Source: a virus. Taken from it: a DNA stretch of 64,000 nt. The stretch covers positions 31,623 through 95,622 of IMG/VR virus record IMGVR_UViG_3300037339_000405. One strand, given 5' to 3'. Positions 12,821 through 36,809 of this stretch are shown here, one piece after another (position 1 is the stretch's first letter; each line of letters begins with the position of its first letter). Below the pieces are notes generated by a model that worked only from the letters and a program-made list of their open reading frames with translations, was not told the DNA's origin and did no database searches. The translations under genes were made by a program, and so were the position numbers.

Positions 12821-13003
12821 CTAACGAGGTGGGTCAATGCTCCTGATAGGAAGCTTTTGCATCTGTAACCATCCCTTGGCCTGAGAAATGGCGGCATCCC
12901 TCTCCGGAGTATGCGTCTGCTGCTTCAGCTTGGCTATGTAACGCCGTATCTGCTCAGCAGGGGAATACACGGACACTTCCGGGTCAATCAAGCTGGCGAT
13001 CAT
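12821..13003 (-). CDS. small hypothetical protein directly after MuF (possible partner of its C-terminal domain)
   Basis: ATGA overlap with the MuF stop. Confidence 0.45.
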   Translation of the reverse strand: MIASLIDPEVSVYSPAEQIRRYIAKLKQQTHTPERDAAISQAKGWLQMQKLPIRSIDPPR

Positions 13004-16000
13004 GCGATAGCCTCCAAGGGCTCGTGAATCAAGAAGGACGGGTTTATGGGAGGCATCTGCAGGCTCTTCAACACATCAATTCGTGCCTGCACTGCCTTCA
13101 CATCGATCAACCCTTCCACCATAGCCACATCATGCAGGAAACCGGGTCCTGCCTTCTCCACCACATAATCAAGCAACCCGTACCGATGCATCACCTGATT
13201 CACGAAATGCGTATGAGCAACAGCTGCCACATTCTCATGCACCCTTCCAGCTTGCACAAACGGGCGTATCGCAGAATAAAATTCTGCCGCAGCTTTCTGG
13301 TACACATCCCGATAGAGAAGGTTAAATTCACGCATCGCATCGATATTACCCATGAATTCTTTCACCCTCCCGGCATACGTCGTGCCTTCAGAAGTCAGCG
13401 CGAGCATCTTGTCAATGCCCCAATTGGAGGCCAGCAGCATGTCCATGTCACTCAAGCTCCTCCCCATCGGGTGATTGTGGTACACCGTGGTACCTGACAG
13501 GCGCGCGGCCTCCTCCATCGTGAAATCCACGTAAGATTTGGTGCCCCCCTTAGTCAGCACCTCTTCGCCAGACCGATTGAACGCATAGAGGTATTCGCGT
13601 TCCGCGCTATCGGGCTGGTTGAGCACGTACTTGGAAGCTGTCTCATGAGCTTGCTGTACCGCGCTACGCCCGGTAAGAGGAGGCGCGGAAGTAATCTGCT
13701 CTATGCCTAGATCCGTGTGCACCGGCTGCTTGATGCGATCTGGAAATGCGGCTTGAAAACTGGGAGTGTCTTCAATGTTTGGAACCTGCCCGAGCGGTAC
13801 CAGCTGCCCCCTGCAAAACGGATGAAATGGGGGGATATGCCAATTGCGGGCCACCACTTCTTCTTCGGTCATGTTGCGCAGCTTCTCTACGTCACTGGCT
13901 CGCTGACTAGGCCACGACTGCAACGTGCGAAGCTCCTGCGGATCGTCCACCGAGAGCACTACGTCCAACGTGTTGCGCGCTGAGACCACCGTGAAGGTGC
14001 GTCCATGCATCGCACGGCACACCGGACAAATCTTGTTATCCAGCTGCTCGTTTATTGCGTAGCGTTCCACCCCGAGAATCTCTGCCTCGGACGTGAACCC
14101 ATACGCGGCCACGCGCGTAGTGTGCAGGGCGCTCACCATCTGCATGTAACCGCGCCCACCATCACGGAAGCTTACGAAAGGTTGGATCAAGCTCTTGGTA
14201 AGCTCTTTGCTTACACGCCGGAGATGCAGGGGGTAGCGCGGCTGCCCTTCTTCTTGCCATTCCGCGCGCCAAATCACCGTCTTTCTATCCAGTGTGCGCA
14301 CGGTCTCTACCACATCCCCAGTCCACGCACGCCATTCCCCAAGAGAAGATACCTTGTACCCACGCGTGCCTTTCTTGGGAGACACTTGCAAAACCTTTAT
14401 CTCTTGGCGCCCTATATTCTTGAGAGCTTCAGCATCCGTCATGAAGAACAACGGATCTAAAGCGCCCCCCGCATTCTCGCGCCCTGCGAGGAACCGTTGA
14501 ACAAAACGCATGCGCGTTTCCGTCTGCTCTACTTCGGTAGCAGGCCGTGAATAGAAACCTTCCCCCTCGCTCTGCCAGCTACCACCCAGTTTCCCCGCAA
14601 CAATCTTGGGATCAGTAGAGAACGGGGTGTCTTTGGGCCAGCGCTTGTCAAGTGGGCCGATAAACATCACTGTACGATTACGTGTCGATGCATCTAATTC
14701 CAATGGGATGCCGCGTTTTGAAACAGCGCCTCCCCAGATCCTAGTGATGAAATCCATGTAAGGCTGTTTGGCCTCTTCGCCCAAAGTGGCTTTGCCGATC
14801 AAGTCTTCTAGGCTCACTTTCTCGTTGAGAACATCGTGCATCAACAGCATCGCATTCTCGATTGCAACAGCCGTGCCCTTGTCTTCAGTGAAGCTGATAG
14901 TGTCCGAAGTCCCCCCACCTAGCCCGCGTCCAAGACCCTGACCTAGCTCCTCGCGCGTCTTTAGCCCGTGCTCCATGACAGCAGAGACTGCCGTAGTAAC
15001 GTGGTACAACTCATCGGGCAGGTTTTCTAGCTTCTCAGCCCCCGACAGGTTTGCCTGCAGAAAAAACCCCTGCTTCGCTGCGCTCTCCGGAGTTATGGTA
15101 CCCATGGCAAGCGCTCTCATCATCTGCGCATCCCACGCACGCTCCTTCACGCGCTTCTTGTCAAAGAGTTCATGCACAGCCTCTGCGCTACCTAACCTTT
15201 CCACTATCTGATCGTAGTTCAAGCCCGCGACACCAGCATCTTCCATCATACTAGCGTCAAACCGCTCTCGTTTACCTTCCGGCGGCTCATTGCTGCGCGC
15301 CCACTGACCCCCCTCCGAAGTACCTGCAGGACTACGCGGCTGGTCGGGATCGTATTTTGTAGTGGCTCTACCCCTTGAAAACACCACATCGGAAGCCCGC
15401 CATACAAAGCGCTGCCCGATCCTTTTACTCGGTGCGGCTGATTTCAATGCACGCTGCTCCTGAGAAACTATCTCAAGCATCACCATTTTGCGCTTGATGA
15501 TCTCGTCCTCAGTAACCCGCATGCTCACGGGTACATCCTCCTGCACGGACAACACCCTGAACTTTGTCCCACGTGCAAGGATGAACTCATTCTCTGTGCC
15601 AGCGCCCGTGCCCAACCCTTTGTAACCTGCGGGCACAATAATACGGGCAACCACTTCTCCCGGAGTAAATGCGAAGTCCGCTGCCTTGCTAGAAGAAAGA
15701 CTAGTGGAGGTGAAGCCGTTGTCTACAAACTCATCTCCCGCAGCAACTGCCTTCGCAAGCGGACCCCCCATGCCACGGTACACGGCAAGAGACTCTTTAA
15801 GAGGGGGTGCGCCTTCTATCGCCTTGTCTAAGGCCGCAACGTGCTCTTTGGTATAGCTCAAAGTTTCCTCTGACCCTAATCCACTTCTCAAATACTCGTT
15901 AATCACTCTGTAACCAATGCCAGTGTAGTTGCCCAGAGCAATACCTTGTGCTGCTGGCAAGTTGGCTGTGTAGTCTCCATAGTTGTCGGAAAGAAACTCT

Positions 16001-17148
16001 CGGGCTTTCTCCCTCTGGTCCCCGGGATCAGGCCCCACCTGCTCCAGAACATCCATTACACCTGTGTCAGTCCAGCGCCCTGCTTCATCACGCGGTTGGT
16101 CGGGGTCGTATTTTGTGATGCTAGGATTTTTTGGGTCAAACGCTCCGGTGTTACCTAGTGCAGACTTGATCTGCTCGGGCTTGAATACTCCCCAAGTCCA
16201 AGATTTACCCTCTTTCACCTTGATCCCATCGTAACCAGCCTTCTGTGCCGCTTCAACAAATCCCGGAGAGGCGATGATTTGATAAGCCTTGAACTTCTGC
16301 GGCACCCCGTCCACTTCCTCATCTCCGTACTTGCCGACAGTGAACTCCAACCCAGTCGCCTTTCTGGCTTCCGCATACGTCATCTTGTCGTTCATGTTGA
16401 ACTTCAAGGTGATCGGCTTCTTCACGGAGAGCCACACCGGATAGACCGTCGGGTACTGTCCTTCATTCCACGACTTTGCCCCCGAATACTGGTCAGCGAG
16501 AACGGAAGTCACTCCGAACCACGCCACTGGATCTGTTCTGAACTCCTCTATCCCCGTCTCTCCAGTACCGTGTAAAACCACCAACGGGGCTCCTTTGGGA
16601 TCACGAACCTTGCTTTCCCCAAACCACTCGCGGAACTCGGGAGTGCCGGTGACAGTCCAGCGCCCCTGCTCGTCTCTCGGCTGATCTGGATTGAATTTGG
16701 TGATCCGCAACTGAAATGGATCAACCTCGGTGGGACCGAAATTGGTGGTGTCGTCACTGGCTTCCACGTCTGCAATCAATTGCAGCATATCGTCCCGCAG
16801 CAGTTCCTCAGCATCCTGAAGGATCTGCCTGACGAGCAGCAGGCCCGCCTTGTTGACGACATCGTTGAGCTTGCCTGACCCGGCCGCTGTGCTGCTCGCG
16901 CGCTCGGTCACGCGCGTGGCACCCACAAGCAGGGCCGCGCGTGTGTAGTACTCGATGGACTTGAGATTCTCGTCTACAACTGTCTGCAGGCTGATTGAAT
17001 TGGCGATCTGCGTTGCCAGCGCGTAGTCGCCCTTCTGCAGGGCAGACTTGACCTTACGTCCGATCTCGTTGGAAACCGTGAACCAGCTGCGGGTCAGCTT
17101 GTTGGCAAGCCCCTGCTCAACCGACAGGTAGGCTTCAATTGACGCCAT
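13000..17148 (-). CDS. MuF (SPP1 gp7-like) head morphogenesis protein carrying three inserted ART-like domains and a C-terminal JAB-like domain
   Basis: MuF motifs D.KICPVC..MHG and PPFHPFCRG; HGT..YPVWL..GYDGI..F.PEQIKS (ART-PolyVal-like); VYRG/FTSTS/ENE (VIP2-like ART); LYHVT..V..HGL (ART-like); HNHP...SLS..D (JAB-like); follows portal. Confidence 0.88.
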   Translation of the reverse strand: MASIEAYLSVEQGLANKLTRSWFTVSNEIGRKVKSALQKGDYALATQIANSISLQTVVDENLKSIEYYTRAALLVGATRVTERASSTAAGSGKLNDVVNKAGLLLVRQILQDAEELLRDDMLQLIADVEASDDTTNFGPTEVDPFQLRITKFNPDQPRDEQGRWTVTGTPEFREWFGESKVRDPKGAPLVVLHGTGETGIEEFRTDPVAWFGVTSVLADQYSGAKSWNEGQYPTVYPVWLSVKKPITLKFNMNDKMTYAEARKATGLEFTVGKYGDEEVDGVPQKFKAYQIIASPGFVEAAQKAGYDGIKVKEGKSWTWGVFKPEQIKSALGNTGAFDPKNPSITKYDPDQPRDEAGRWTDTGVMDVLEQVGPDPGDQREKAREFLSDNYGDYTANLPAAQGIALGNYTGIGYRVINEYLRSGLGSEETLSYTKEHVAALDKAIEGAPPLKESLAVYRGMGGPLAKAVAAGDEFVDNGFTSTSLSSSKAADFAFTPGEVVARIIVPAGYKGLGTGAGTENEFILARGTKFRVLSVQEDVPVSMRVTEDEIIKRKMVMLEIVSQEQRALKSAAPSKRIGQRFVWRASDVVFSRGRATTKYDPDQPRSPAGTSEGGQWARSNEPPEGKRERFDASMMEDAGVAGLNYDQIVERLGSAEAVHELFDKKRVKERAWDAQMMRALAMGTITPESAAKQGFFLQANLSGAEKLENLPDELYHVTTAVSAVMEHGLKTREELGQGLGRGLGGGTSDTISFTEDKGTAVAIENAMLLMHDVLNEKVSLEDLIGKATLGEEAKQPYMDFITRIWGGAVSKRGIPLELDASTRNRTVMFIGPLDKRWPKDTPFSTDPKIVAGKLGGSWQSEGEGFYSRPATEVEQTETRMRFVQRFLAGRENAGGALDPLFFMTDAEALKNIGRQEIKVLQVSPKKGTRGYKVSSLGEWRAWTGDVVETVRTLDRKTVIWRAEWQEEGQPRYPLHLRRVSKELTKSLIQPFVSFRDGGRGYMQMVSALHTTRVAAYGFTSEAEILGVERYAINEQLDNKICPVCRAMHGRTFTVVSARNTLDVVLSVDDPQELRTLQSWPSQRASDVEKLRNMTEEEVVARNWHIPPFHPFCRGQLVPLGQVPNIEDTPSFQAAFPDRIKQPVHTDLGIEQITSAPPLTGRSAVQQAHETASKYVLNQPDSAEREYLYAFNRSGEEVLTKGGTKSYVDFTMEEAARLSGTTVYHNHPMGRSLSDMDMLLASNWGIDKMLALTSEGTTYAGRVKEFMGNIDAMREFNLLYRDVYQKAAAEFYSAIRPFVQAGRVHENVAAVAHTHFVNQVMHRYGLLDYVVEKAGPGFLHDVAMVEGLIDVKAVQARIDVLKSLQMPPINPSFLIHEPLEAIA

Positions 17149-17152
17149 GGAG

Positions 17153-19300
17153 CTATTGCATCATCGTGTCGCCGCAACATGCCGCGATCTCGGCCAGTCC
17201 AGCGGGATCTCTACCAATAGCCGGGAACGTCTTCGCCGCCAGCAGCTGATTCAATAGCTCGCGCTCGTGTGGCGCGCACAGATCCACCTTGTGAAGAATG
17301 GAGGCTTTCTCGATGGAGGAGTACTCGCGCGAAGGCTCATCCAGTTCCATCACCTCGGCCCACTGATTGGCGAGCACCAACAGATCCGTAGCAGTGTAGC
17401 CGGCCCGCTTCACCCCCGCTACCGGAGAGCCCACACCCGGCTGCACCGCAACTCCAACCCCGGCGGGCTTGGGTGGGGCAATCTTGCCATCAACAGCCGC
17501 TTGCGCAAATGGCACCAACTGCGGCGGAGCGTTCAAAGCCGCAGCCTGCGGATCGTACTCAAGGGTCAGGTTGGCAACCTGATTAAGGTCCTTCATAAAG
17601 CTCTCAGCGCTGGCCTTGTCCTTGCCCATCTCAAGCCCTTTCAGTTGGGCATCGATGTTGCGCAGAGTGAGAGGCTTGCTGACCATCTTGAATTTGAAAG
17701 CCCCTAGCGCCCGGGAAATCGTGCGGTTAATGATCTCGTCAAACTCCTCCCGCTCAGGCTGAAACACCTGAGCCTCAGTCACCATGTAGCTCGTCATCGC
17801 CGTGGCAAACGAGTAGTCCTGCGCCTCTCCTAGAAACAAGGGGTGCAGTCTGAAGCCACGCCTGACACGGTTCTCGGCATTCTTGTCGTACTCCTGAAAC
17901 ATCGCATCGTTCTGGCGTGAATCCCCAAAGCGCTCCACCTTCACATCCACCTTGCCAGCCGCATCAAGAGAGCCACTACTACTCTGAGCCTCTACTACCG
18001 CCGCGCGCTGCTTACTCTTGGCGCCACCTGACAAGTAGTGCAACAGCTGCTCGCGCATGGTCTCCACCACTGACCCGCCTTGAATGAAAATAATCGCTGG
18101 CGGGATGCCCCCCGCGTCAAAAAAATCTAGGTTGAACAATTCACTCTTGCGGGAACCAACCACACTGGGCATCTGATTGATCCATCGCGGCATGCCGTAG
18201 TGAGTGCGGTAATCCAGATCCACTACAAAATGAATGACCTCGCTCGCCATGTTATCCACGGGTACCGTTTCACCCGTTACAGCCCAGTCACCCTCTTTAC
18301 GCTTTAGCACGCGCGAAGCACCAAACTCCTTGTAGAAAATCTGTTGGCTGCCGATGATCTGCACATAGCGGCGCTCCCGCTTGAGCATGCTGACCGTGCT
18401 CTCTTTACCAGAGCGTTCAATTTTCACCTCCACTTCCACAGGCTGATCAAGCTTGACCAGCCGCAGTGAAGGTGATTCCAGACTGCGGCACAGCACCACG
18501 TCATTGGCCGAGTTACGAATCACTTCCAGATAGCCGTTGCCGGTCATCTCCAGATCAAAGCGCAATGCGCGCCTGATAGTAGTCATGCTCATCCCGGGGT
18601 ATGGCTCACCGTAGAAGTCCTTGAGCATCTGCTCTTCAGGATCGACAAACGGCGGGCGCACGTCTGGGGGAGGCTCTGCGCCGGGGGCGCCCGGCAAGCT
18701 TTCCGTTGTGGCCCCTATACCTTCTGGCCCGGGGTTCTGCCCCGCAGGGTCCTGCCCCGCAGGGTCCTGTGGAGGTTTCTGACCGTTCCCAGCGGGCGGG
18801 AAGGCTTTGGTGGCGGGCAGCCCCGGGATCTGATCCTGACCGTCTACAGGCGGCTGCTTGAGGCTCTCAGGAGTCTTGGAGCCCGGCGGCAACTTGATCG
18901 GTTTGCCTTCCGAGTCCTGCGGGCCATTAGCCAATCTATCCTGTACTTCCTGCCACTTTCGCAGCTTCTTTTCCCTGTCTGCCTTCTCTTGGTCAACCGG
19001 CTCGACTGTGAAGCCCGTGCCATCAATGTTCACCTCCATGGCCTGCACACACTGGAGCAGTGTGTTGTTCGCGTAGCACAGCGCAATCAACGTCTCCGGA
19101 TTGAACGGAGGCTGTATCGCCATCTTGTTAGACTGCGCGCTGGTATACAAGGATGAAAACTGATCCTCGTATGTCAGAGGTTGATTGGCAATCAACTCGT
19201 TCTCGGCGGAACGTTTGAATGCCTTGGAAAAGTGAACCGCAATATCGGCCGAACTACTACCGGATTTGCGGACGGGTATTGCTTTGTGTGCTTTAGCCAT
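17153..19300 (-). CDS. portal protein (PBSX-like) with Pro/Gln-rich insertion
   Basis: DLEMTGNGYLEV.R, EVIHF....YG.P.W, N..FF..GG.P and F..HP.FLG motifs. Confidence 0.9.
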   Translation of the reverse strand: MAKAHKAIPVRKSGSSSADIAVHFSKAFKRSAENELIANQPLTYEDQFSSLYTSAQSNKMAIQPPFNPETLIALCYANNTLLQCVQAMEVNIDGTGFTVEPVDQEKADREKKLRKWQEVQDRLANGPQDSEGKPIKLPPGSKTPESLKQPPVDGQDQIPGLPATKAFPPAGNGQKPPQDPAGQDPAGQNPGPEGIGATTESLPGAPGAEPPPDVRPPFVDPEEQMLKDFYGEPYPGMSMTTIRRALRFDLEMTGNGYLEVIRNSANDVVLCRSLESPSLRLVKLDQPVEVEVKIERSGKESTVSMLKRERRYVQIIGSQQIFYKEFGASRVLKRKEGDWAVTGETVPVDNMASEVIHFVVDLDYRTHYGMPRWINQMPSVVGSRKSELFNLDFFDAGGIPPAIIFIQGGSVVETMREQLLHYLSGGAKSKQRAAVVEAQSSSGSLDAAGKVDVKVERFGDSRQNDAMFQEYDKNAENRVRRGFRLHPLFLGEAQDYSFATAMTSYMVTEAQVFQPEREEFDEIINRTISRALGAFKFKMVSKPLTLRNIDAQLKGLEMGKDKASAESFMKDLNQVANLTLEYDPQAAALNAPPQLVPFAQAAVDGKIAPPKPAGVGVAVQPGVGSPVAGVKRAGYTATDLLVLANQWAEVMELDEPSREYSSIEKASILHKVDLCAPHERELLNQLLAAKTFPAIGRDPAGLAEIAACCGDTMMQ

Positions 19301-19353
19301 AGTGGCCCCCTGAATAGCCAGCACAGCCTACCGGATTTTGGCCCTGCTAACAA

Positions 19354-21702
19354 TCAATCCAGTGTGAGCTTCTTCAGTTCCGCAAGATTCGACCCCACTT
19401 GGCAATCCACCTTGAAGGTCAGCTGAGGATGCCAGCCCACTTCATGGAACGGCAGATTCTCCATGATCTCCTTGGACAAGCGCGCGTAGTACTCAAAATT
19501 GTTCTCGGGGAAATAGAACAACAGCTGATCGTGCACCATGCCCCACACCGGCATCACGGGAAACAGTCTGCGCTGATCCACGATTGCCGTGGCCCACAAT
19601 GCCATGTCACTAAGGGTTCCCTGCACCGGGCTATTGATCGCCTGCCGCCCCGCCTTGCTGTTCATGTACCTGTCAGCGGAATGAATCAGCGGCAAATGCC
19701 GCACGCGCCCCAACGGGCTATAAACCTTGCTGTGCATGCGAGCGAAAGCCTTCTGCTCCTCATGCCACGGCCCCAGCCTACTATATAGGCTGAAGAAAGC
19801 ATCTCGGGCTACAGTAGCCTCCTCCAACGTCATCGCCACGCCATACACGTACCACGCGTAATCCTTGAAACCCTCGGCGCTCATTCCATACAGAAGCCCA
19901 AAATTACCCGCCTTAGCCTTCTGCCGGACCAACTCGAACAGCGCGGGATTGGTGCGCGCCAGTTCCAGAAACTGCTCAAAATTCTTGTACCCTGCAAGCT
20001 TGGCGCCGGTCATCGCATGCAAATCGATGCCCTTGCGATACGCAGACAGCATGGTGGGCTCCTCGGCCAGACACGCCGCGATGCGCAGTTCCCCTTGACT
20101 GTAATCATTGGACCCGATCAGCCAGCCTTTCGGCGCCACCAAGCAACGCCGGATCTTCCCGGCCCACTTGGTGTGCTTGGGCACCGTCTGCCCGGGTGGG
20201 TCCTTGACACTGATGCGCCCGGTATTGGTCCCTCCCGCCGATTCATGATCATCCCCAGCGAACAGGAAATGCGTCGGATGAAACCGGCCATCGGAACGCA
20301 GATGTTCCAAGAAGCCAGTGACATAGGTGTTCAGTGTCTTGGTGGCCTCACCGTACTCATCCAGCAGCTTGATAAACGGCCCTGCCTCCTCGTGCTCGCT
20401 GAACATCTCCAGATGTTTCATCGCCGTGGAGGGCTTGTTGGTCTGCGCTGTCTTCATCTTGGGGCGCAGGTTGAACCCCGTGGGACTGAACATCACATCG
20501 TGCAGGAAGCTTGGCTTGGTGAGATTGATCTCCCCGTCTTTATCGGTGTGCCGCAGAATCAAGCGCGGGCTCACCATCGACTTCACCTCTTCAGTCTTCT
20601 TGGCGATAAACGCGCGCACGTCGGCCTCAAGCTCACGATAGGCTTCGCGGTCCACACACCAGCCTACCCGTTCAACCTTCTCGTAAGCGCGTGCAGCCGG
20701 ATGCAGAATCGTGGTGTAGAAACGAGCCAGCCTAGGCTCCTGCAGCAACTCCTGCCTGAGTGGCTCTATGACGCGGTAACAAGCATCTGTGTCGCCGCCG
20801 GCATACATCAGAAACCGGTCAGGATCTGCAGCTAGCGCAAGATCCATGCGTGACTTGTCCACCATACGGTTGAAGCCATCATCGTAGCCGCCAAGATCCG
20901 TGTATATCTTAGCGTGCACGTTGAGACTGTTGCTGCGATTCTCATCCACCAGTGAACCTACGAGCATGGTATCCATGCGAAACGTGGTGCACTCGGTGAT
21001 CAGCCACAGCTTGGCAATCCAGTTCAAATCAAACTTGAGATTGGCGCCATACAACGCCACGCGCGGGTCAGTGAGTATGAAATTGAAGTCGGCGCGCAGC
21101 CCCCACCCGATGCGCCGGCACGCCTTGCGATTAGCGAACTTGACCGCATCAGCCGTGCCTGCCTTGACAGTAACCTGCGCACTGACGATGTACCCAAGTG
21201 GATTGTAGGGGTCAACTCCCCGTGTTTCCAGATCCAGAGTGGTACGCACCGGTTTGCCCGTGCGTGCAAACTCGGCCTTGATGAAATCAATTGCATCGGT
21301 GAAATCTTCCACCCAGCGGTACTGACCCATAGGTGGTATGACAGTGCCCGTGTGCACCAGCCTGATCGCCGTGCGCACGTCCATCATGGTGTCCACCGCC
21401 AACGCGTGGTCCACATCGATGATCTGTGCCGCATAGGTCAACAGGCATTGCGCCCCACACGGCAGCGCAATCGGCTGCGTGCGCAGGCTGCCTATCGTGC
21501 GGTTACGCGGCTTGATTACCCCTGCGTCAGAGATCAACTGACGCGCGTTAGCGCCCATGGCAAGCACCACGTCTCCCGTACCAAACTCAGGGAGGTGATC
21601 GCCTACGGACTCGAATCTATGTGGAGTGCTGGTCCCACTCAACGCTGGGGCCACCACCTTCTTCAGGTGGTGCGGCGTATCCGGGGTCCACACTATGAGC
21701 AT
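19354..21702 (-). CDS. polA: DNA polymerase, family A, with 3'-5' exonuclease
   Basis: Exo motifs DLETRG, NLKFD, YAGGD; polymerase motifs DYSQGELR, RQKAKAGNFGLLYG, VHDQ; start reassigned to MLIVW. Confidence 0.95.
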   Translation of the reverse strand: MLIVWTPDTPHHLKKVVAPALSGTSTPHRFESVGDHLPEFGTGDVVLAMGANARQLISDAGVIKPRNRTIGSLRTQPIALPCGAQCLLTYAAQIIDVDHALAVDTMMDVRTAIRLVHTGTVIPPMGQYRWVEDFTDAIDFIKAEFARTGKPVRTTLDLETRGVDPYNPLGYIVSAQVTVKAGTADAVKFANRKACRRIGWGLRADFNFILTDPRVALYGANLKFDLNWIAKLWLITECTTFRMDTMLVGSLVDENRSNSLNVHAKIYTDLGGYDDGFNRMVDKSRMDLALAADPDRFLMYAGGDTDACYRVIEPLRQELLQEPRLARFYTTILHPAARAYEKVERVGWCVDREAYRELEADVRAFIAKKTEEVKSMVSPRLILRHTDKDGEINLTKPSFLHDVMFSPTGFNLRPKMKTAQTNKPSTAMKHLEMFSEHEEAGPFIKLLDEYGEATKTLNTYVTGFLEHLRSDGRFHPTHFLFAGDDHESAGGTNTGRISVKDPPGQTVPKHTKWAGKIRRCLVAPKGWLIGSNDYSQGELRIAACLAEEPTMLSAYRKGIDLHAMTGAKLAGYKNFEQFLELARTNPALFELVRQKAKAGNFGLLYGMSAEGFKDYAWYVYGVAMTLEEATVARDAFFSLYSRLGPWHEEQKAFARMHSKVYSPLGRVRHLPLIHSADRYMNSKAGRQAINSPVQGTLSDMALWATAIVDQRRLFPVMPVWGMVHDQLLFYFPENNFEYYARLSKEIMENLPFHEVGWHPQLTFKVDCQVGSNLAELKKLTLD

Positions 21703-22177
21703 CGTCAATCCTCTTCCACTTCTTCTTGATGTACTCGTAATGTGCCAGCAGACACTGCGGCACTTTCCAGATGATGTTGCGGTATATGTCGGCAAGCGAG
21801 CGATTCGTTATGTCCCGATGCCCAGACAGGAACATGCCCCCTTCAGGAAACACGGCGTCACTGTCCCGGATTTTAGCGCCGTCCAACACCAACACGGACT
21901 GACGATCAGTAGCCTTACTGTGCACGACCAACAGAAACAAATCCACGCCCACATGCACCAGCATCCATAGTTGGGACCCAAGAATACTGGAAGCCTTTAC
22001 CATCAACGTAAACTCCAAGTCTACCTCTCCCGGAAGGCTCTCCATCTGCACAGTAAGCGCCCCTGAGATCGGCAAGCTCACAGCACCTACATTCAGCTGA
22101 TTGCGATCCACCGTCAACGGCATCTGCAAAACGTCAGACATCTTCTTAATGTGCTCTAGGATCACAGGAGTGCTCAT
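21617..22177 (-). CDS. hypothetical protein
   Basis: Tiles with neighbouring genes; no recognised motif. Confidence 0.5.
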   Translation of the reverse strand: MSTPVILEHIKKMSDVLQMPLTVDRNQLNVGAVSLPISGALTVQMESLPGEVDLEFTLMVKASSILGSQLWMLVHVGVDLFLLVVHSKATDRQSVLVLDGAKIRDSDAVFPEGGMFLSGHRDITNRSLADIYRNIIWKVPQCLLAHYEYIKKKWKRIDDAHSVDPGYAAPPEEGGGPSVEWDQHST

Positions 22178-31063: not shown

Positions 31064-32191
31064 CTAACCCAATGGGGCCTTTCTCACTGAAATCCTCGGC
31101 AAGCGGGTCGTCACCGGCTTGGCTCTGACCCCTTTACCAGTAGCGCTGTCGTACTCAGCAACTTTAATCGCCGGCTTGTCTCTTGCCACTTCGTTGTTGA
31201 ACACAGACCATTTCTCAAAGTGAGTAGACAGCTGCTCAAAATTCTTCTCATTGTTGAAGCCACTTAGAATTGCTGAAGGAGGAACCAGCCTCCCACGCTG
31301 ACCCGGTCCCTTGCCTCTCCACCTTTCCACCGCACGCTGCGCCGCTAGCTGCGGGGGCAAATGGACGAAAGCCCCCTGTACACTGTAACCAGCCTTGGAA
31401 AAACTGGTTATCCTATCTAAAGCTGGGTCATAGCTCTTCATCGTAGCGTCAAGAACCACGTTATACCCGGCAGCTTTTGCTCTTCGTGCCGCCATATCAA
31501 AAAGATGCCCGCTTTCCTCATGGTAAATGGCAGCCTTGGATTCCCAACCCTTGACTTTGTCACGCTCGGCCAGCCTCTCCTTGAAGTGATCGGCATCAAT
31601 CACAAGAGTCTTAGCCGGATCATACAAATGCAGAGACACTGGCCGAGAATCACTGCGTGCACCGCTTTTTCCACTGCCTCCACGCCCCCCCAATACCAAA
31701 GCCGTTGGTGCAACACCCACCGGCGGTATAGCGTTAGCGGCACCCTTGAAGAACTCAACAAGGATCTCATCATGCACCTTCGTGCGTTCCGCACTAAAAG
31801 AATCTTTCGTGGCCCCGGCATGAACCATGTGAGTACTTTTGCCGGCAGCTATATCTGCGTCCACTGCGGCCATTTCACGCAGAAACTCCGCATGATCCGC
31901 CTTGCTTAACGTAGCAAAGAGGATCTCGTCTTCTATTTCAGCCCTCCCAGACTGGGTTTCTACTCGCGGGTCGGCGGACTCATTGAATAGAGAAGACGCG
32001 GAACCTCCGGGGGTGACCCTCTCTCCCGGCCGCGCATTGATGGCTTCTCGTACCTTTACCGGGCGCTTGCGCACCATCGCGCCACCAACACTGGCGCCTA
32101 ACGATTTAATCCACTTACCATATTCATCCCTAGGCTGGCTGGGGTCGAATTCCTTACGGACGTTCTGGAAAATGGAAGGGATGTTCAACAT
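31064..32191 (-). CDS. zeta-toxin-like P-loop kinase with N-terminal FDPSQPRDEYGKW tag
   Basis: LGGRGGSGKS, IDAD.FK, YHEES, VVLDAT and R..R..GR.VP motifs. Confidence 0.85.
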   Translation of the reverse strand: MLNIPSIFQNVRKEFDPSQPRDEYGKWIKSLGASVGGAMVRKRPVKVREAINARPGERVTPGGSASSLFNESADPRVETQSGRAEIEDEILFATLSKADHAEFLREMAAVDADIAAGKSTHMVHAGATKDSFSAERTKVHDEILVEFFKGAANAIPPVGVAPTALVLGGRGGSGKSGARSDSRPVSLHLYDPAKTLVIDADHFKERLAERDKVKGWESKAAIYHEESGHLFDMAARRAKAAGYNVVLDATMKSYDPALDRITSFSKAGYSVQGAFVHLPPQLAAQRAVERWRGKGPGQRGRLVPPSAILSGFNNEKNFEQLSTHFEKWSVFNNEVARDKPAIKVAEYDSATGKGVRAKPVTTRLPRISVRKAPLG

Positions 32192-34617: not shown

Positions 34618-35466
34618 CTACTGCGACAGATCGACCCCCACCACTACCGGCTCGCCCTTGGCACGGTACACCTTGCGCACCGTGAACTTGCTCCCAACTG
34701 GCAAGATCAATTCCGTCTCATTGCCAGCCTTAGACATACCACCTACATAGAGACCCTTCTGGCCCTTCTTGACATTGATTGCAAGCAGAAACACCTTCTC
34801 TTGTAGCGTCTTATGCTCCAATCCAGAAAACTCGATTGCCTTCGAGCGTTTGATAGCCGTGGACGACATGGCCTTACTCTCAATTGTCTTGCCCACGAAT
34901 TCTTCCACGTTCTGTGGAGTCATGCCTAACGCCTGCCCACGCCCAGCAGTTACCGCGCGATAGGTAGTCAAGTCCGTCTCGATCTCCTTCGCAGCCACTG
35001 CTGCATTCAACACTTGAGCCCTCTTCAACCAAAAGGCTTTGATCTCATCTCCTCTTGGATTTGAAGGATCAACAATAGCTCTGTTCATGTGCCGGAACCC
35101 TGCCCGGGTGTAATCATCCAAGGCATCTTTTTCATCTACCAAAAATTCCTGAATGTATTGACGATGTGACTCAGATATCGCATTCACCACCTCGGTCTCT
35201 TTCAGCCGCTCAGCTGTACGGAGTTTGTTGTAGATTATCCCTGCCCGCGCTGCCTCTTTAAGCTCTTCCATCCTCTCGGCAGAGATCCACATGTTTGGCA
35301 GGCCAAGCATCTTCTTCATGCCAGCCACTTCAGCAGCTACTTGCGCACCCACCTCCTCGTCGGTAGCGGTAACTGCCCCGGAAGAAATGAACTGACCCCC
35401 TTCAGTCGTGCCCACCGGGGCGCGCGGTTGATCCGGGCTATAGCGAAGAACATGTGCGTACATCAT
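34618..35466 (-). CDS. VIP2-like (R-S-ExE) ADP-ribosyltransferase with N-terminal YSPDQPR..EGGQF tag
   Basis: DYT..GF..MN, TYRA, SSTA and ETELILP.G motifs. Confidence 0.85.
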   Translation of the reverse strand: MMYAHVLRYSPDQPRAPVGTTEGGQFISSGAVTATDEEVGAQVAAEVAGMKKMLGLPNMWISAERMEELKEAARAGIIYNKLRTAERLKETEVVNAISESHRQYIQEFLVDEKDALDDYTRAGFRHMNRAIVDPSNPRGDEIKAFWLKRAQVLNAAVAAKEIETDLTTYRAVTAGRGQALGMTPQNVEEFVGKTIESKAMSSTAIKRSKAIEFSGLEHKTLQEKVFLLAINVKKGQKGLYVGGMSKAGNETELILPVGSKFTVRKVYRAKGEPVVVGVDLSQ

Positions 35467-36809
35467 TGAACCAAATCCACATGCATCACAACCCGGGGTA
35501 CCTTTCTATCCCCCACCGCCACTGACTCTTTCGTAGCTTTACGCACCACGTAGGATGCATTGCGTGGCAGCACCACTTCGTCTTCCGCACTCACGAGAGA
35601 CACGGTTTTGACAAACAGTCCTTTGGCCTCTTTCGGGGCATTGATCACCAGAAGCACTTCCCCAAAGCCTTTGGCTGAATCAGCATTCACAGACGTGCTC
35701 TGAAACGCAGGGTCCTTGATCACCTTACCCACTGAACCAAGGGCATCCTCCATAGAAGAGAAAAGCCTATTAGACCCTATTTTGGCACCACGAAACAGTT
35801 GCACATCCTTACCCAGACTCGTCTTTTCCAAAGCCTCATCCAGTGCCTCTATCTTTTGGCGCACTACCTTCTCGTAGTGAGAGTTCCCATCTGGGTAGTC
35901 CTGTTCCCACCAATCCTTCCTACCTGCTAGAAGCTTGTTCATCGCGCCATACGAACTATCAGTGTAGTCAATTACGGCTTCTCGCAAGTTGGTGGGCAAA
36001 GCCTTTAGCTGCGCACGGTGTTGTGTATCAAATTCGCTGTAGGCTTCTGTACGATTAACCGGAGACGTAGCTATCCCTTGCCACTCATTGATGATGCGCT
36101 CTTCATCGTAGCCATACAGATTCACTGCACCACCTGCACCACCTGTAGCCGCGAACTGCCCCCCTTCCGAATTACCCGCTGGGACACGTGGCTGCTCTGG
36201 GTCGTATCGCAGAATCTCTAATAGAGTGGACGCCGGCTCTTTCACACAAACCCCCCACGCAGTGTCAGCATCTTCTTTGGTAGTGAGATCCACCACCCGC
36301 GCGTTGATCTTCTTCAACCCTTTCTGCACCGCCGCCACCACCCTATGATGGCCGTTCATGATCCACGTCTCGCCTTTGTAACGGACGGCCTGCACCGGCT
36401 TGTCCAGCTGAGCCTGATCACCACTAATGAAGGACTTCACGCGCTCTTTGTTCACCACACTCTGCGTGACCACCAACTTGTCTAGGGGCACCTTGGAAAC
36501 ACGTAGCGTCTTGAAAAAAGAGGCACGCGCCTTGAGGTACTTGCCAATGTCTCCCTTGGCAGGGTCAACACCTATCTTGGCATTCAAGGCATCGAAAAAC
36601 GGCGCTTTCGAGTAGGGAACAAAGCGGGCGTTGTCCAGCGTCGTGTCGATCCGCTCTACCTGCTTCGGGTCATCCAACGTGCGGTCCGGCTTGTAGTCCA
36701 CGATCTTGCGATCAAGCTCACCGTACCCATCAAGGGTTAAGGCTCCGCCAGTGAACCGCCCACGCTCATCATGGTTGGGATTGAACTTCAAAATGACTGC
36801 GAAAGTCAC
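35463..36809 (-). CDS. two-cassette protein: ParB/Srx-like domain + VIP2-like ADP-ribosyltransferase
   Basis: TQ...P..V...IMNGHHR (ParB-like); YT..SY..MN, LFRG, FQSTS, EDEV.LPR (ART); a tag precedes each domain. Confidence 0.85.
   Translation of the reverse strand: MTFAVILKFNPNHDERGRFTGGALTLDGYGELDRKIVDYKPDRTLDDPKQVERIDTTLDNARFVPYSKAPFFDALNAKIGVDPAKGDIGKYLKARASFFKTLRVSKVPLDKLVVTQSVVNKERVKSFISGDQAQLDKPVQAVRYKGETWIMNGHHRVVAAVQKGLKKINARVVDLTTKEDADTAWGVCVKEPASTLLEILRYDPEQPRVPAGNSEGGQFAATGGAGGAVNLYGYDEERIINEWQGIATSPVNRTEAYSEFDTQHRAQLKALPTNLREAVIDYTDSSYGAMNKLLAGRKDWWEQDYPDGNSHYEKVVRQKIEALDEALEKTSLGKDVQLFRGAKIGSNRLFSSMEDALGSVGKVIKDPAFQSTSVNADSAKGFGEVLLVINAPKEAKGLFVKTVSLVSAEDEVVLPRNASYVVRKATKESVAVGDRKVPRVVMHVDLVQ

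Follow-up and report, generated by a model that had tools for sequence, protein, structure and literature searches.

Phage-type polyvalent proteins (Iyer, Burroughs, Anand, de Souza and Aravind 2017, PMC5512222; extended in PMC9503650) carry several unrelated effector domains on one virion-associated polypeptide, are encoded in the late or head gene block and have a MuF anchor. The same organization is found in P0001, a 1,382-residue protein encoded on the minus strand of IMGVR_UViG_3300037339_000405, a complete 95.6-kb IMG/VR virus record with direct terminal repeats, of which a stretch of 64,000 nt (the window) was analyzed here. In P0001, three domains of ADP-ribosyltransferase (ART) type are inserted between two conserved parts of a MuF-family head protein, and each is opened by a copy of a short peptide motif (the tag). 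We conclude that P0001 is a known kind of protein, a polyvalent protein, in a new layout. With a probability of roughly 0.7, we read it as a phage-type polyvalent MuF head protein whose tag-marked ART cassettes are packaged, freed and injected together with the DNA.

ART-PolyVal, the signature domain of polyvalent proteins, is present in P0001, and the zeta-like kinase, DdrB/ParB-like and peptidase domains of polyvalent proteins, which are predicted to be delivered with the DNA, form a vocabulary that is common to this phage. A polyvalent protein combines at least two disparate domains in one open reading frame (ORF) of the head module; in P0001, we find ART-PolyVal, a VIP2 ART, what appears to be a new ART-fold domain, a MuF core and a JAB-like domain. 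The two papers describe MuF proteins with C-terminal effectors and processing by zincin-like metallopeptidases (PMC5512222, PMC9503650), and MuF-ART fusions are described in PMC9503650. In contrast, the effectors of P0001 are all inserted at the same internal hot spot, a zincin is lacking, and a conserved peptide opens each cassette. According to PMC5512222, Alt/VIP2 ARTs fall outside genuine polyvalent proteins, and RadC-type JAB domains occur only in the versions from conjugative elements. P0001 is a counter-example to the former statement and, if the fold call on its C-terminal domain holds, to the latter as well.

The MuF polymorphic toxins of temperate phages (Jamet et al. 2017, PMC5576092) resemble P0001 in that MuF is joined to variable toxin-type domains, ARTs included, which are rapidly swapped. 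However, they bear a single C-terminal toxin, whereas P0001 has three internal toxin-type domains and no adjacent small immunity gene. With regard to the tag, the nearest parallels are the propeptides of T4 and SPN3US: the T4 capsid targeting sequence (CTS) serves in targeting and is also a substrate of gp21, and both ends of Alt undergo processing (PMC9026906); in SPN3US, it is the prohead protease that cuts the ejection proteins (PMC10052503). There, a short N-terminal peptide on unrelated head-internal proteins, including an injected ADP-ribosyltransferase, loads the cargo and is then removed. The T4 CTS consists of ~10 aa ending in L/I-x-E, and the tag has no sequence similarity to it; the protease also belongs to a different family (gp21 in T4, XkdF S78_2 here). 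Furthermore, the tag, whose function here is predicted, occurs internally as well, as a putative polyprotein separator and behind portal or MuF anchors. In PMC5512222, PMC5576092 and PMC9503650 and in full-text motif searches, we found no description of a single internal insertion site that is empty in some members of a large MuF subfamily and filled in others, nor of the conserved tag or the family of the third cassette. Look-ups on linker, cleavage and processing in Iyer 2017 and Jamet 2017 returned no description of the tag, and a literature search on the proteomics of minor head proteins, MuF and prohead proteases gave nothing relevant.

Three cassettes at one internal site of a MuF-family protein

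The syntenic protein gp002 of Stenotrophomonas phage DLP5 (YP_009619897, 'ParB-like nuclease domain protein'; 446 aa) has the same N-terminal segment and MuF core as P0001, with an empty site between them. Its residues 3-127 align to residues 4-129 of P0001 (E 2e-8), and its residues 144-330 align to residues 985-1177 (39% identity, E 4e-41). Given that these two blocks are only 16 aa apart in DLP5, ~855 aa of P0001 represent an insertion. The match of P0001 to PHROG 30193 is split likewise, into profile positions 12-142 and 157-274. At the C-terminus, where P0001 has the JAB-like domain, DLP5 gp002 has a ParB/VapB-like domain (VapB-like, ParBc_2); the same type of domain forms a tagged cassette of another ORF in the window (35463-36809).

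The membership of P0001 in the MuF family rests on PHROG 30193, which matches the core with E 9.4e-25, and on the relatives, because the Pfam MuF model (PF04233) scores under its cut-off (E 0.3, 12.3 bits; cut-off 29.6). The minor-head-protein PHROGs 9907, 115 and 4728 also match, and PF04233 matches 28 of 44 close relatives at E<=1e-3. The N-terminal segment of ~150 aa named in the original prediction is indeed conserved in this MuF subfamily (positions 12-142 of PHROG 30193), but it lies outside the MuF domain as defined by Pfam; hence, the site of insertion is the linker that joins two conserved parts. Similarly, the MuF core was said to resume after ELTK-S, and its homology does resume at aa 985. 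ELTK-S itself, however, is the family junction: the sequence before the core, h-x-K-A-E followed by xRILQPFxSF, is common to empty and filled members, so ELTK (aa 982-985) is not a fourth tag.

To survey the site, 1.84 billion representatives were searched with the core, which yielded 1,344 relatives, and the best 150 of these were examined for site occupancy. Among these 150, the N-terminal segment, where detected, starts no later than residue ~20 and extends to ~140 at most. The site is empty in 68, whose core starts at ~140-165, and filled in 38, in which the core starts past residue 240 and as far down as 2396. The nearest relatives in IMG/VR, five short, tag-free proteins with 46-59% core identity, have an empty site. 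Across 44 relatives, the inserts include ART-PolyVal (10), topoisomerase IB (6), VIP2 ART (6) and the protein Acb1 (4), which acts against the cyclic-oligonucleotide-based anti-phage signaling system (CBASS), along with cytidylyltransferase, GNAT and PARP-like domains. In filled relatives, the order of parts is N-segment, tag, domain, tag, domain, core (e.g. P0021, P0033, P0056 and P0077), and identical cassette types recur in different members and at different positions, which amounts to cassette shuffling. Thus, homologues of cassette 1 occur in P0108, P0020 and P0069, and P0056 carries a homologue of cassette 2 right behind a tag; cassette 3 shares 53% identity with one in P0069, whereas the site is empty in the closest relatives by core sequence. 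The original prediction had named orthologues without cassette variability as evidence that would count against it; what is found instead is extensive variation at the same site, in occupancy as well as in cassette type.

Acb1 (PF23474, E down to 3e-39) was detected within the MuF-family or polyvalent proteins P0031 and P0002 and in two more; in P0031, it is located upstream of the MuF core. In some phages, Acb1 may therefore be delivered pre-made with the DNA.

A MuF protein with ART domains could also be a polymorphic toxin as defined by Jamet et al. (2017), its ARTs being antibacterial toxins that lysogens direct against competitors while the phage supplies immunity. MuF-toxin fusions with ART domains are already known (PMC5576092), Zeta-toxin and VIP2 domains are classical toxins, and the ADP-ribosylglycohydrolase of this phage (37047-38042) could be the antidote. 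Yet the variable domains of P0001 are internal rather than C-terminal, the C-terminal domain is JAB-like, and the gene downstream encodes a prohead protease and not a small immunity protein. Moreover, a search of the complete 95.6-kb genome for tyrosine integrases, though not for serine recombinases, found none, and relatives hold Acb1 and topoisomerase IB in the same slot, where counter-defence and takeover fit better than interbacterial killing. Because the domains are internal, a protease lies downstream and a tyrosine integrase was not found, the toxin role is disfavoured, and we consider it improbable.

The cassettes themselves bear out the proposal of an internal, tag-delimited polyprotein with three different ART-type cassettes, as all three have an ART fold or belong to an ART family, the third on the basis of a structural model. 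Cassette 1, foreseen as ART-PolyVal-like, matches the full profile of PF18760 (positions 1-140) at aa 183-337 with E 5.1e-19 and 69.9 bits, above the curated cut-off of 31.2. Its D307, in a GYDG motif, is conserved in >=90% of 21 homologues; H193 is present as well, in a column where His is conserved in only 60-90% of the same homologues. Cassette 2, expected to be a VIP2-like R-S-ExE ART, matches PF03496 (ADPrib_exo_Tox) at aa 383-538 with E 2.7e-18 and 66.5 bits (cut-off 23.4). Its catalytic motifs are intact, namely VYR458G, FTS481TS (S481 lying within STS) and E519-N-E521, and R458, S481 and E521 are conserved in >=90% of 8 homologues.

Cassette 3 has no Pfam, PHROG or meaningful PDB match by sequence, but it has 30 stand-alone homologues of ~320-370 aa, none of them annotated. 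Invariant in 27 sequences are H716 (LYHVTT), T719, R732, GLGGG 742-746, S752 (TISFT) and E938-W-R940; by eye, the conserved H, S/T and E were placed on ART strands 1, 2 and 5. An AlphaFold model was built from the 27-sequence alignment, starting at residue 606 inside tag 3, with a predicted local distance difference test score (pLDDT) of 80. An ESM Atlas search with this cassette gave a score of 0.77, which is under the tool's trusted level, and a Foldseek search of the model against the PDB gave nothing at E<=1e-3; only the exhaustive VIA-align search exposed the ART fold. In that search, ART-fold proteins make up 43 of the 50 top matches (Z 8.4 to 4.8). The best is Tpt1 (9ld3_A, Z 8.4, root-mean-square deviation 2.6, 88 residues aligned), followed by 7kw9 (Z 7.0). 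Pertussis S1, scabin, Arr, diphtheria toxin, tankyrase (PARPs) and DarT match as well, the protein-modifying toxins being nearly tied with Tpt1. Of the two target classes raised in the original prediction, protein and nucleic acid, cassette 3 may act on either. Although individual matches of this strength are middling, their consistency is persuasive, and it supports the ART-like (HxT-type) domain that had been suspected here as a predicted ART fold of an unannotated family.

The JAB-like domain with HNHP..S..D that was expected behind the MuF core is also present. The motif, at aa 1224-1236, is completed by E1185, and E1185, H1224-N-H1226, S1233 and D1236 are conserved in >=90% of 10 homologues; its spacer is one residue short of what we take to be the canonical JAMM motif. 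The domain has zero Pfam matches. Its model (pLDDT 86) resembles JAMM/MPN proteins: the best Foldseek match is the Rpn11 homologue 6fnn_A (probability 1.0, but E 9.6e-3), and the top 12 VIA matches are all JAMM/MPN, at only Z 5.9-4.6, followed by deaminases of a related fold. These 12 include a bacterial ubiquitin-like protein (Ubl) deubiquitinase, RadC and the CBASS protein Cap3. The domain may be an additional effector, and its likeness to Ubl-deubiquitinases and Cap3 invites the speculation of a counter-defence role. We also considered it as the enzyme that cuts the tags. However, it is present in P0023, P0093, P0125 and P0157, which have an empty site and no tag, while most tag-bearing relatives have no JAB domain; since its presence does not co-vary with tags, it is probably not the tag-cutting enzyme.

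The tag peptide in this phage and in others

The motif TK[FY][ND]PDQPR occurs exactly three times in P0001, at aa 150-158, 345-353 and 597-605 (nt 16675-16701, 16090-16116 and 15334-15360), and each copy lies inside the range in which a cassette-opening tag had been predicted. Three copies of a nine-residue motif in one protein cannot be a product of chance. The full motif spans ~20 residues: h-x-K-[FY]-[DN]-P-x-Q-P-R, then either D-x-x-G-[RK]-W or x-P-x-G-x-x-x-G-G-Q-[WF], and then a Gly/Ser-rich stretch. About half of the codons differ at residues that are identical between the tags; thus, selection acts on the peptide, and the copies are not recent DNA repeats. In the model of cassette 3, the first ~15 residues (from SPAGTSEGGQW, part of tag 3) have a pLDDT of 35-48 and are predicted to be disordered.

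In this genome, the tag is not confined to P0001: 5 ORFs, none of them outside the window, carry it or a variant of it, with 8 instances in total. These instances precede a toxin/effector-type or ParB/VapB-like domain, except in an ORF of 131 aa without a recognised domain. This ORF begins MSYVKILRGEPPGHPFRGNQHTDEGGGG and has no Pfam or PHROG family; it may encode a small tagged head-internal protein.

A strict back-translated DNA pattern for K[FY][DN]P[DN]QPRD was then run against IMG/VR and matched 81 stretches, with 81 distinct ORFs. By a rough estimate from the ~38 bits of information in the pattern, the exact collection size being not known, fewer than one chance match is expected. The first tag lies <=60 aa from the start in 37 of the 81 ORFs. 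Zeta_toxin (10), VIP2 ART (10), MuF (10) and portal (6) are among their domains, along with ART-PolyVal, Acb1, CDI nuclease, Tox-REase-5, histidine phosphatase, 2H, a lethal-factor-like peptidase and one XkdF protease. In four portal fusions (L062, L080, L084 and L059), tags stand directly behind the portal domain, and in L085 the layout is MuF, tag, topoisomerase IB. Conservation extends to positions outside the search pattern, with a hydrophobic residue at -3, G at +10, [RK] at +11 and W/F at +12, again followed by a Gly/Ser-rich stretch.

Two of these loci deserve a description of their own. In L062:1581-4787 (+) (IMGVR_UViG_3300009873_000232), a 1,069-aa ORF comprises a Mu-type portal (aa 50-414), a tag (482), a second tag (715) and MuF (902-1059); judging from the sequence, portal and MuF are fused here via tagged cassettes in one polypeptide. 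L086:5443-6105 (-), on the same contig as L008, encodes a 221-aa stand-alone ParB/VapB-like protein that is tagged at aa ~43, in a relative phage whose MuF site is empty; the Pfam models that match its domain also match the C-terminal domain of DLP5 gp002 and the tagged cassette of ORF 35463-36809.

Nearly all filled MuF relatives carry the tag or a variant of it directly behind the N-terminal segment. The variants in the MuF family are K-A-NPYHDExGRF, GHPFRGNQY and EHPRxPAGSxxGGxF, and at the MuF junction of P0037, P0042, P0136 and P0140 the tag is replaced by GHPFRGNQ[YH].

The distribution of the tag bears on whether it does anything at all. Tags could be functionless linker remnants that move with recombining cassettes, P0001 then being one uncleaved multi-enzyme polypeptide. 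Some filled relatives have no recognisable tag, and some polyvalent proteins are delivered unprocessed, e.g. N4 virion RNA polymerase (vRNAP) and TraC1 (PMC5512222). Nevertheless, the peptide is kept despite synonymous turnover, it is conserved across unrelated cargo families and anchors as well as past the positions fixed by the search pattern, and it is strongly N-terminal in stand-alone proteins. We therefore give little credence to tags without a function.

The composition of the tag raises a second question, namely whether it needs a protease. Asp-Pro and Asn-Pro bonds can be labile, and a self-cleaving or labile tag would break at its [DN]-Pro bond, either spontaneously or with assistance, in the capsid or after ejection and free the cassettes without a dedicated protease. 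In 146 tag instances, P at +2 is invariant and +1 is D, N or S, though the regular expression by which they were collected demanded both. Variants of the ANPYHDERGRF type, which were found by homology and not by pattern, retain N-P, and the range of tagged modules (Mu-type and HK97-type portals, MuF, XkdF) is awkward for one protease specificity. On the other hand, the GHPFRGNQ[YH] variant sits at the same junction without [DN]-P, and the conserved Lys at -1, together with the downstream G-[RK]-W, suggests recognition by a partner. We consider such self-cleavage an unlikely account of the tag.

Proposed packaging, processing and delivery

SPP1 gp7 and Mu gpF are known to enter the procapsid. 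Returning to the polyvalent reading, we infer that P0001 follows a similar route. The linker between the N-terminal segment and the MuF core has acquired the three effector cassettes, with the JAB/JAMM-like domain borne at the C-terminus, and the MuF parts would bring the protein into the procapsid. The tag would then be a processing site, cut near its conserved Lys, that frees each domain, and the adjoining XkdF-type prohead protease would be the simplest candidate for the cutting enzyme. On entering the cell together with the DNA, the enzymatic domains would modify host targets by ADP-ribosylation at an early stage of infection, in the manner of T4 Alt. In the stand-alone proteins, the tag might additionally be a loading peptide, like the T4 CTS. 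A processing site is favoured because an effector fused to a portal could not leave the capsid uncut.

By analogy with the T4 CTS, the tag thus probably acts as a capsid-loading and/or cleavage signal. A broader claim is that the ~20-residue motif and its variants (..GGQ[WF], ANPYHDExGRF and GHPFRGNQ[YH]) constitute a widespread, portable capsid-cargo signal of non-T4 tailed phages, which would send unrelated effectors into the procapsid and mark the sites at which they are severed from MuF, from the portal or from one another; this we put forward tentatively, as possible rather than probable. Sites resembling h-x-K-[AS]-[ED] were also looked for in the capsid protein, the putative scaffold and the portal, with only isolated matches (IVRK|AD at aa 6-11 of the capsid protein, IMK|AD at 220 of the putative scaffold) to a motif that is too short to interpret.

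Several observations weigh against the reading of P0001 as a head protein with releasable effectors. The Pfam MuF model stays under its cut-off on P0001 (E 0.3); the fold matches of cassette 3 (Z <=8.4) and of the JAB domain (Z <=5.9) are in the range that the tool calls middling; many filled relatives have divergent tag variants or no recognisable tag; the phage is known from one metagenomic contig; and P0001 forms a singleton protein cluster. In addition, a loading tag is superfluous inside a MuF fusion, and a single function for all tag positions may be doubtful.

Genome context and implications

The coordinates of the features are given in Table 1. On the minus strand, the genes follow each other in the order DNA polymerase A, portal, MuF gene, XkdF-type S78_2 protease, 131-aa ORF, putative scaffold and major capsid protein, and DLP5 shows the same order in its head module. 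P0001 therefore has the portal-adjacent placement of a head morphogenesis block, with the portal upstream and the XkdF protease downstream.

Table 1. Features of the P0001 gene, its head module and the other tagged genes of the window (window coordinates; all on the minus strand).
Feature	Residues	Position (nt)	Strand	Basis
Whole gene P0001, MuF-family polyvalent head protein	1,382 aa	13000..17148	(-)	open frame
N-terminal conserved helical segment of the MuF subfamily	1-147	16708..17148	(-)	DLP5 gp002 alignment; PHROG 30193
Tag 1, RITK-FNPDQPRDEQGRW..	148-167	16648..16707	(-)	motif
Cassette 1, ART-PolyVal	168-342	16123..16647	(-)	Pfam PF18760
Tag 2, SITK-YDPDQPRDEAGRW..	343-362	16063..16122	(-)	motif
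Cassette 2, VIP2/Alt-type R-S-ExE ADP-ribosyltransferase	363-594	15367..16062	(-)	Pfam PF03496
Tag 3, ATTK-YDPDQPRSPAGTSEGGQW, GGQ[WF] variant	595-617	15298..15366	(-)	motif
Cassette 3, predicted ART-fold domain, unannotated	618-981	14206..15297	(-)	AlphaFold model and structural matches
Family junction and MuF core, conserved CPVC..HPxCR	982-1125	13774..14205	(-)	DLP5 gp002; PHROG 30193
JAB/JAMM-like domain	1163-1362	13063..13662	(-)	E1185, H1224, H1226, S1233, D1236
Portal protein, directly upstream		17153..19324	(-)	PHROG 12 E 1.7e-23
XkdF-type (S78_2) prohead protease, directly downstream	242 aa	12169..12897	(-)	Pfam PF14550 E 1.2e-26
Head-module ORF without recognised domain, GHPFRGNQH tag variant at aa 12-20	131 aa	11777..12172	(-)	motif
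Putative scaffold	416 aa	10475..11725	(-)	assigned by position
Stand-alone tagged effector, N-terminal tag KEFDPSQPRDEYGKW (aa ~13-27), zeta-toxin-like kinase		31064..32191	(-)	motif and domain
Stand-alone tagged effector, N-terminal tag RYSPDQPRAPVGTTEGGQF, VIP2-type ART		34618..35466	(-)	motif and domain
Two-cassette protein, tag variant KFNPNHDERGRF, ParB/VapB-like domain, tag RYDPEQPRVPAGNSEGGQF, VIP2-type ART		35463..36809	(-)	motif and domain

Megablast of the whole gene against 50,697 phage records gave zero matches, and tblastn matched only at the level of domains, all at <40% identity. A word-indexed search for full-length relatives (760-2419 aa) likewise returned only partial ART-PolyVal matches. 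An assembly artefact or chimera is ruled out by the continuous open frame and by the independent relatives with the same layout of N-segment, tags or cassettes, and core.

Some further observations concern the neighbouring genes. The N-terminus of the head-maturation-protease PHROG 3017 (profile positions 3-34) is matched by the putative scaffold, over its initial ~35 residues, whereas the match of the XkdF protease to this profile sets in only at position 46; at its C-terminus, the protease bears a His-rich, YmaF-like tail (HEHRF..GHAH..HAHRF). The gene directly upstream of the portal (19354-21795, minus strand) encodes a family A DNA polymerase that includes a 3'-5' exonuclease domain. No terminase gene was identified within the window, where an ORF of 186 aa (21617-22177) has no family match. 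The ADP-ribosylglycohydrolase gene (minus strand; PF03747 E 2.1e-35) is located just upstream of the two tagged genes with VIP2-type ARTs, and its product is a possible eraser or self-protection enzyme for the four VIP2/PolyVal-type ARTs of the phage.

Of all phage weapons, effectors delivered with the virion arrive in the host first, yet we know of no sequence rule by which they can be recognised, except in T4 and a few giant phages. Were the tag to serve in loading or processing, a phage genome would directly reveal which cargo is injected; here, such cargo would comprise ARTs, zeta kinases, nucleases, topoisomerase IB and the anti-CBASS protein Acb1. An uncharacterised ART-fold family (at least 30 protein clusters without Pfam or PHROG annotation) and a JAB-like domain would be added to the domains that phages deliver. 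Should the reading as a capsid-cargo signal prove true, the tag would be a general functional counterpart of the T4 CTS that defines the injected repertoire of many uncultured phages. It would also provide a short peptide for loading foreign proteins into non-T4 phage capsids, and it would account for the gain and loss of cargo by MuF and portal proteins through cassette exchange at one site.

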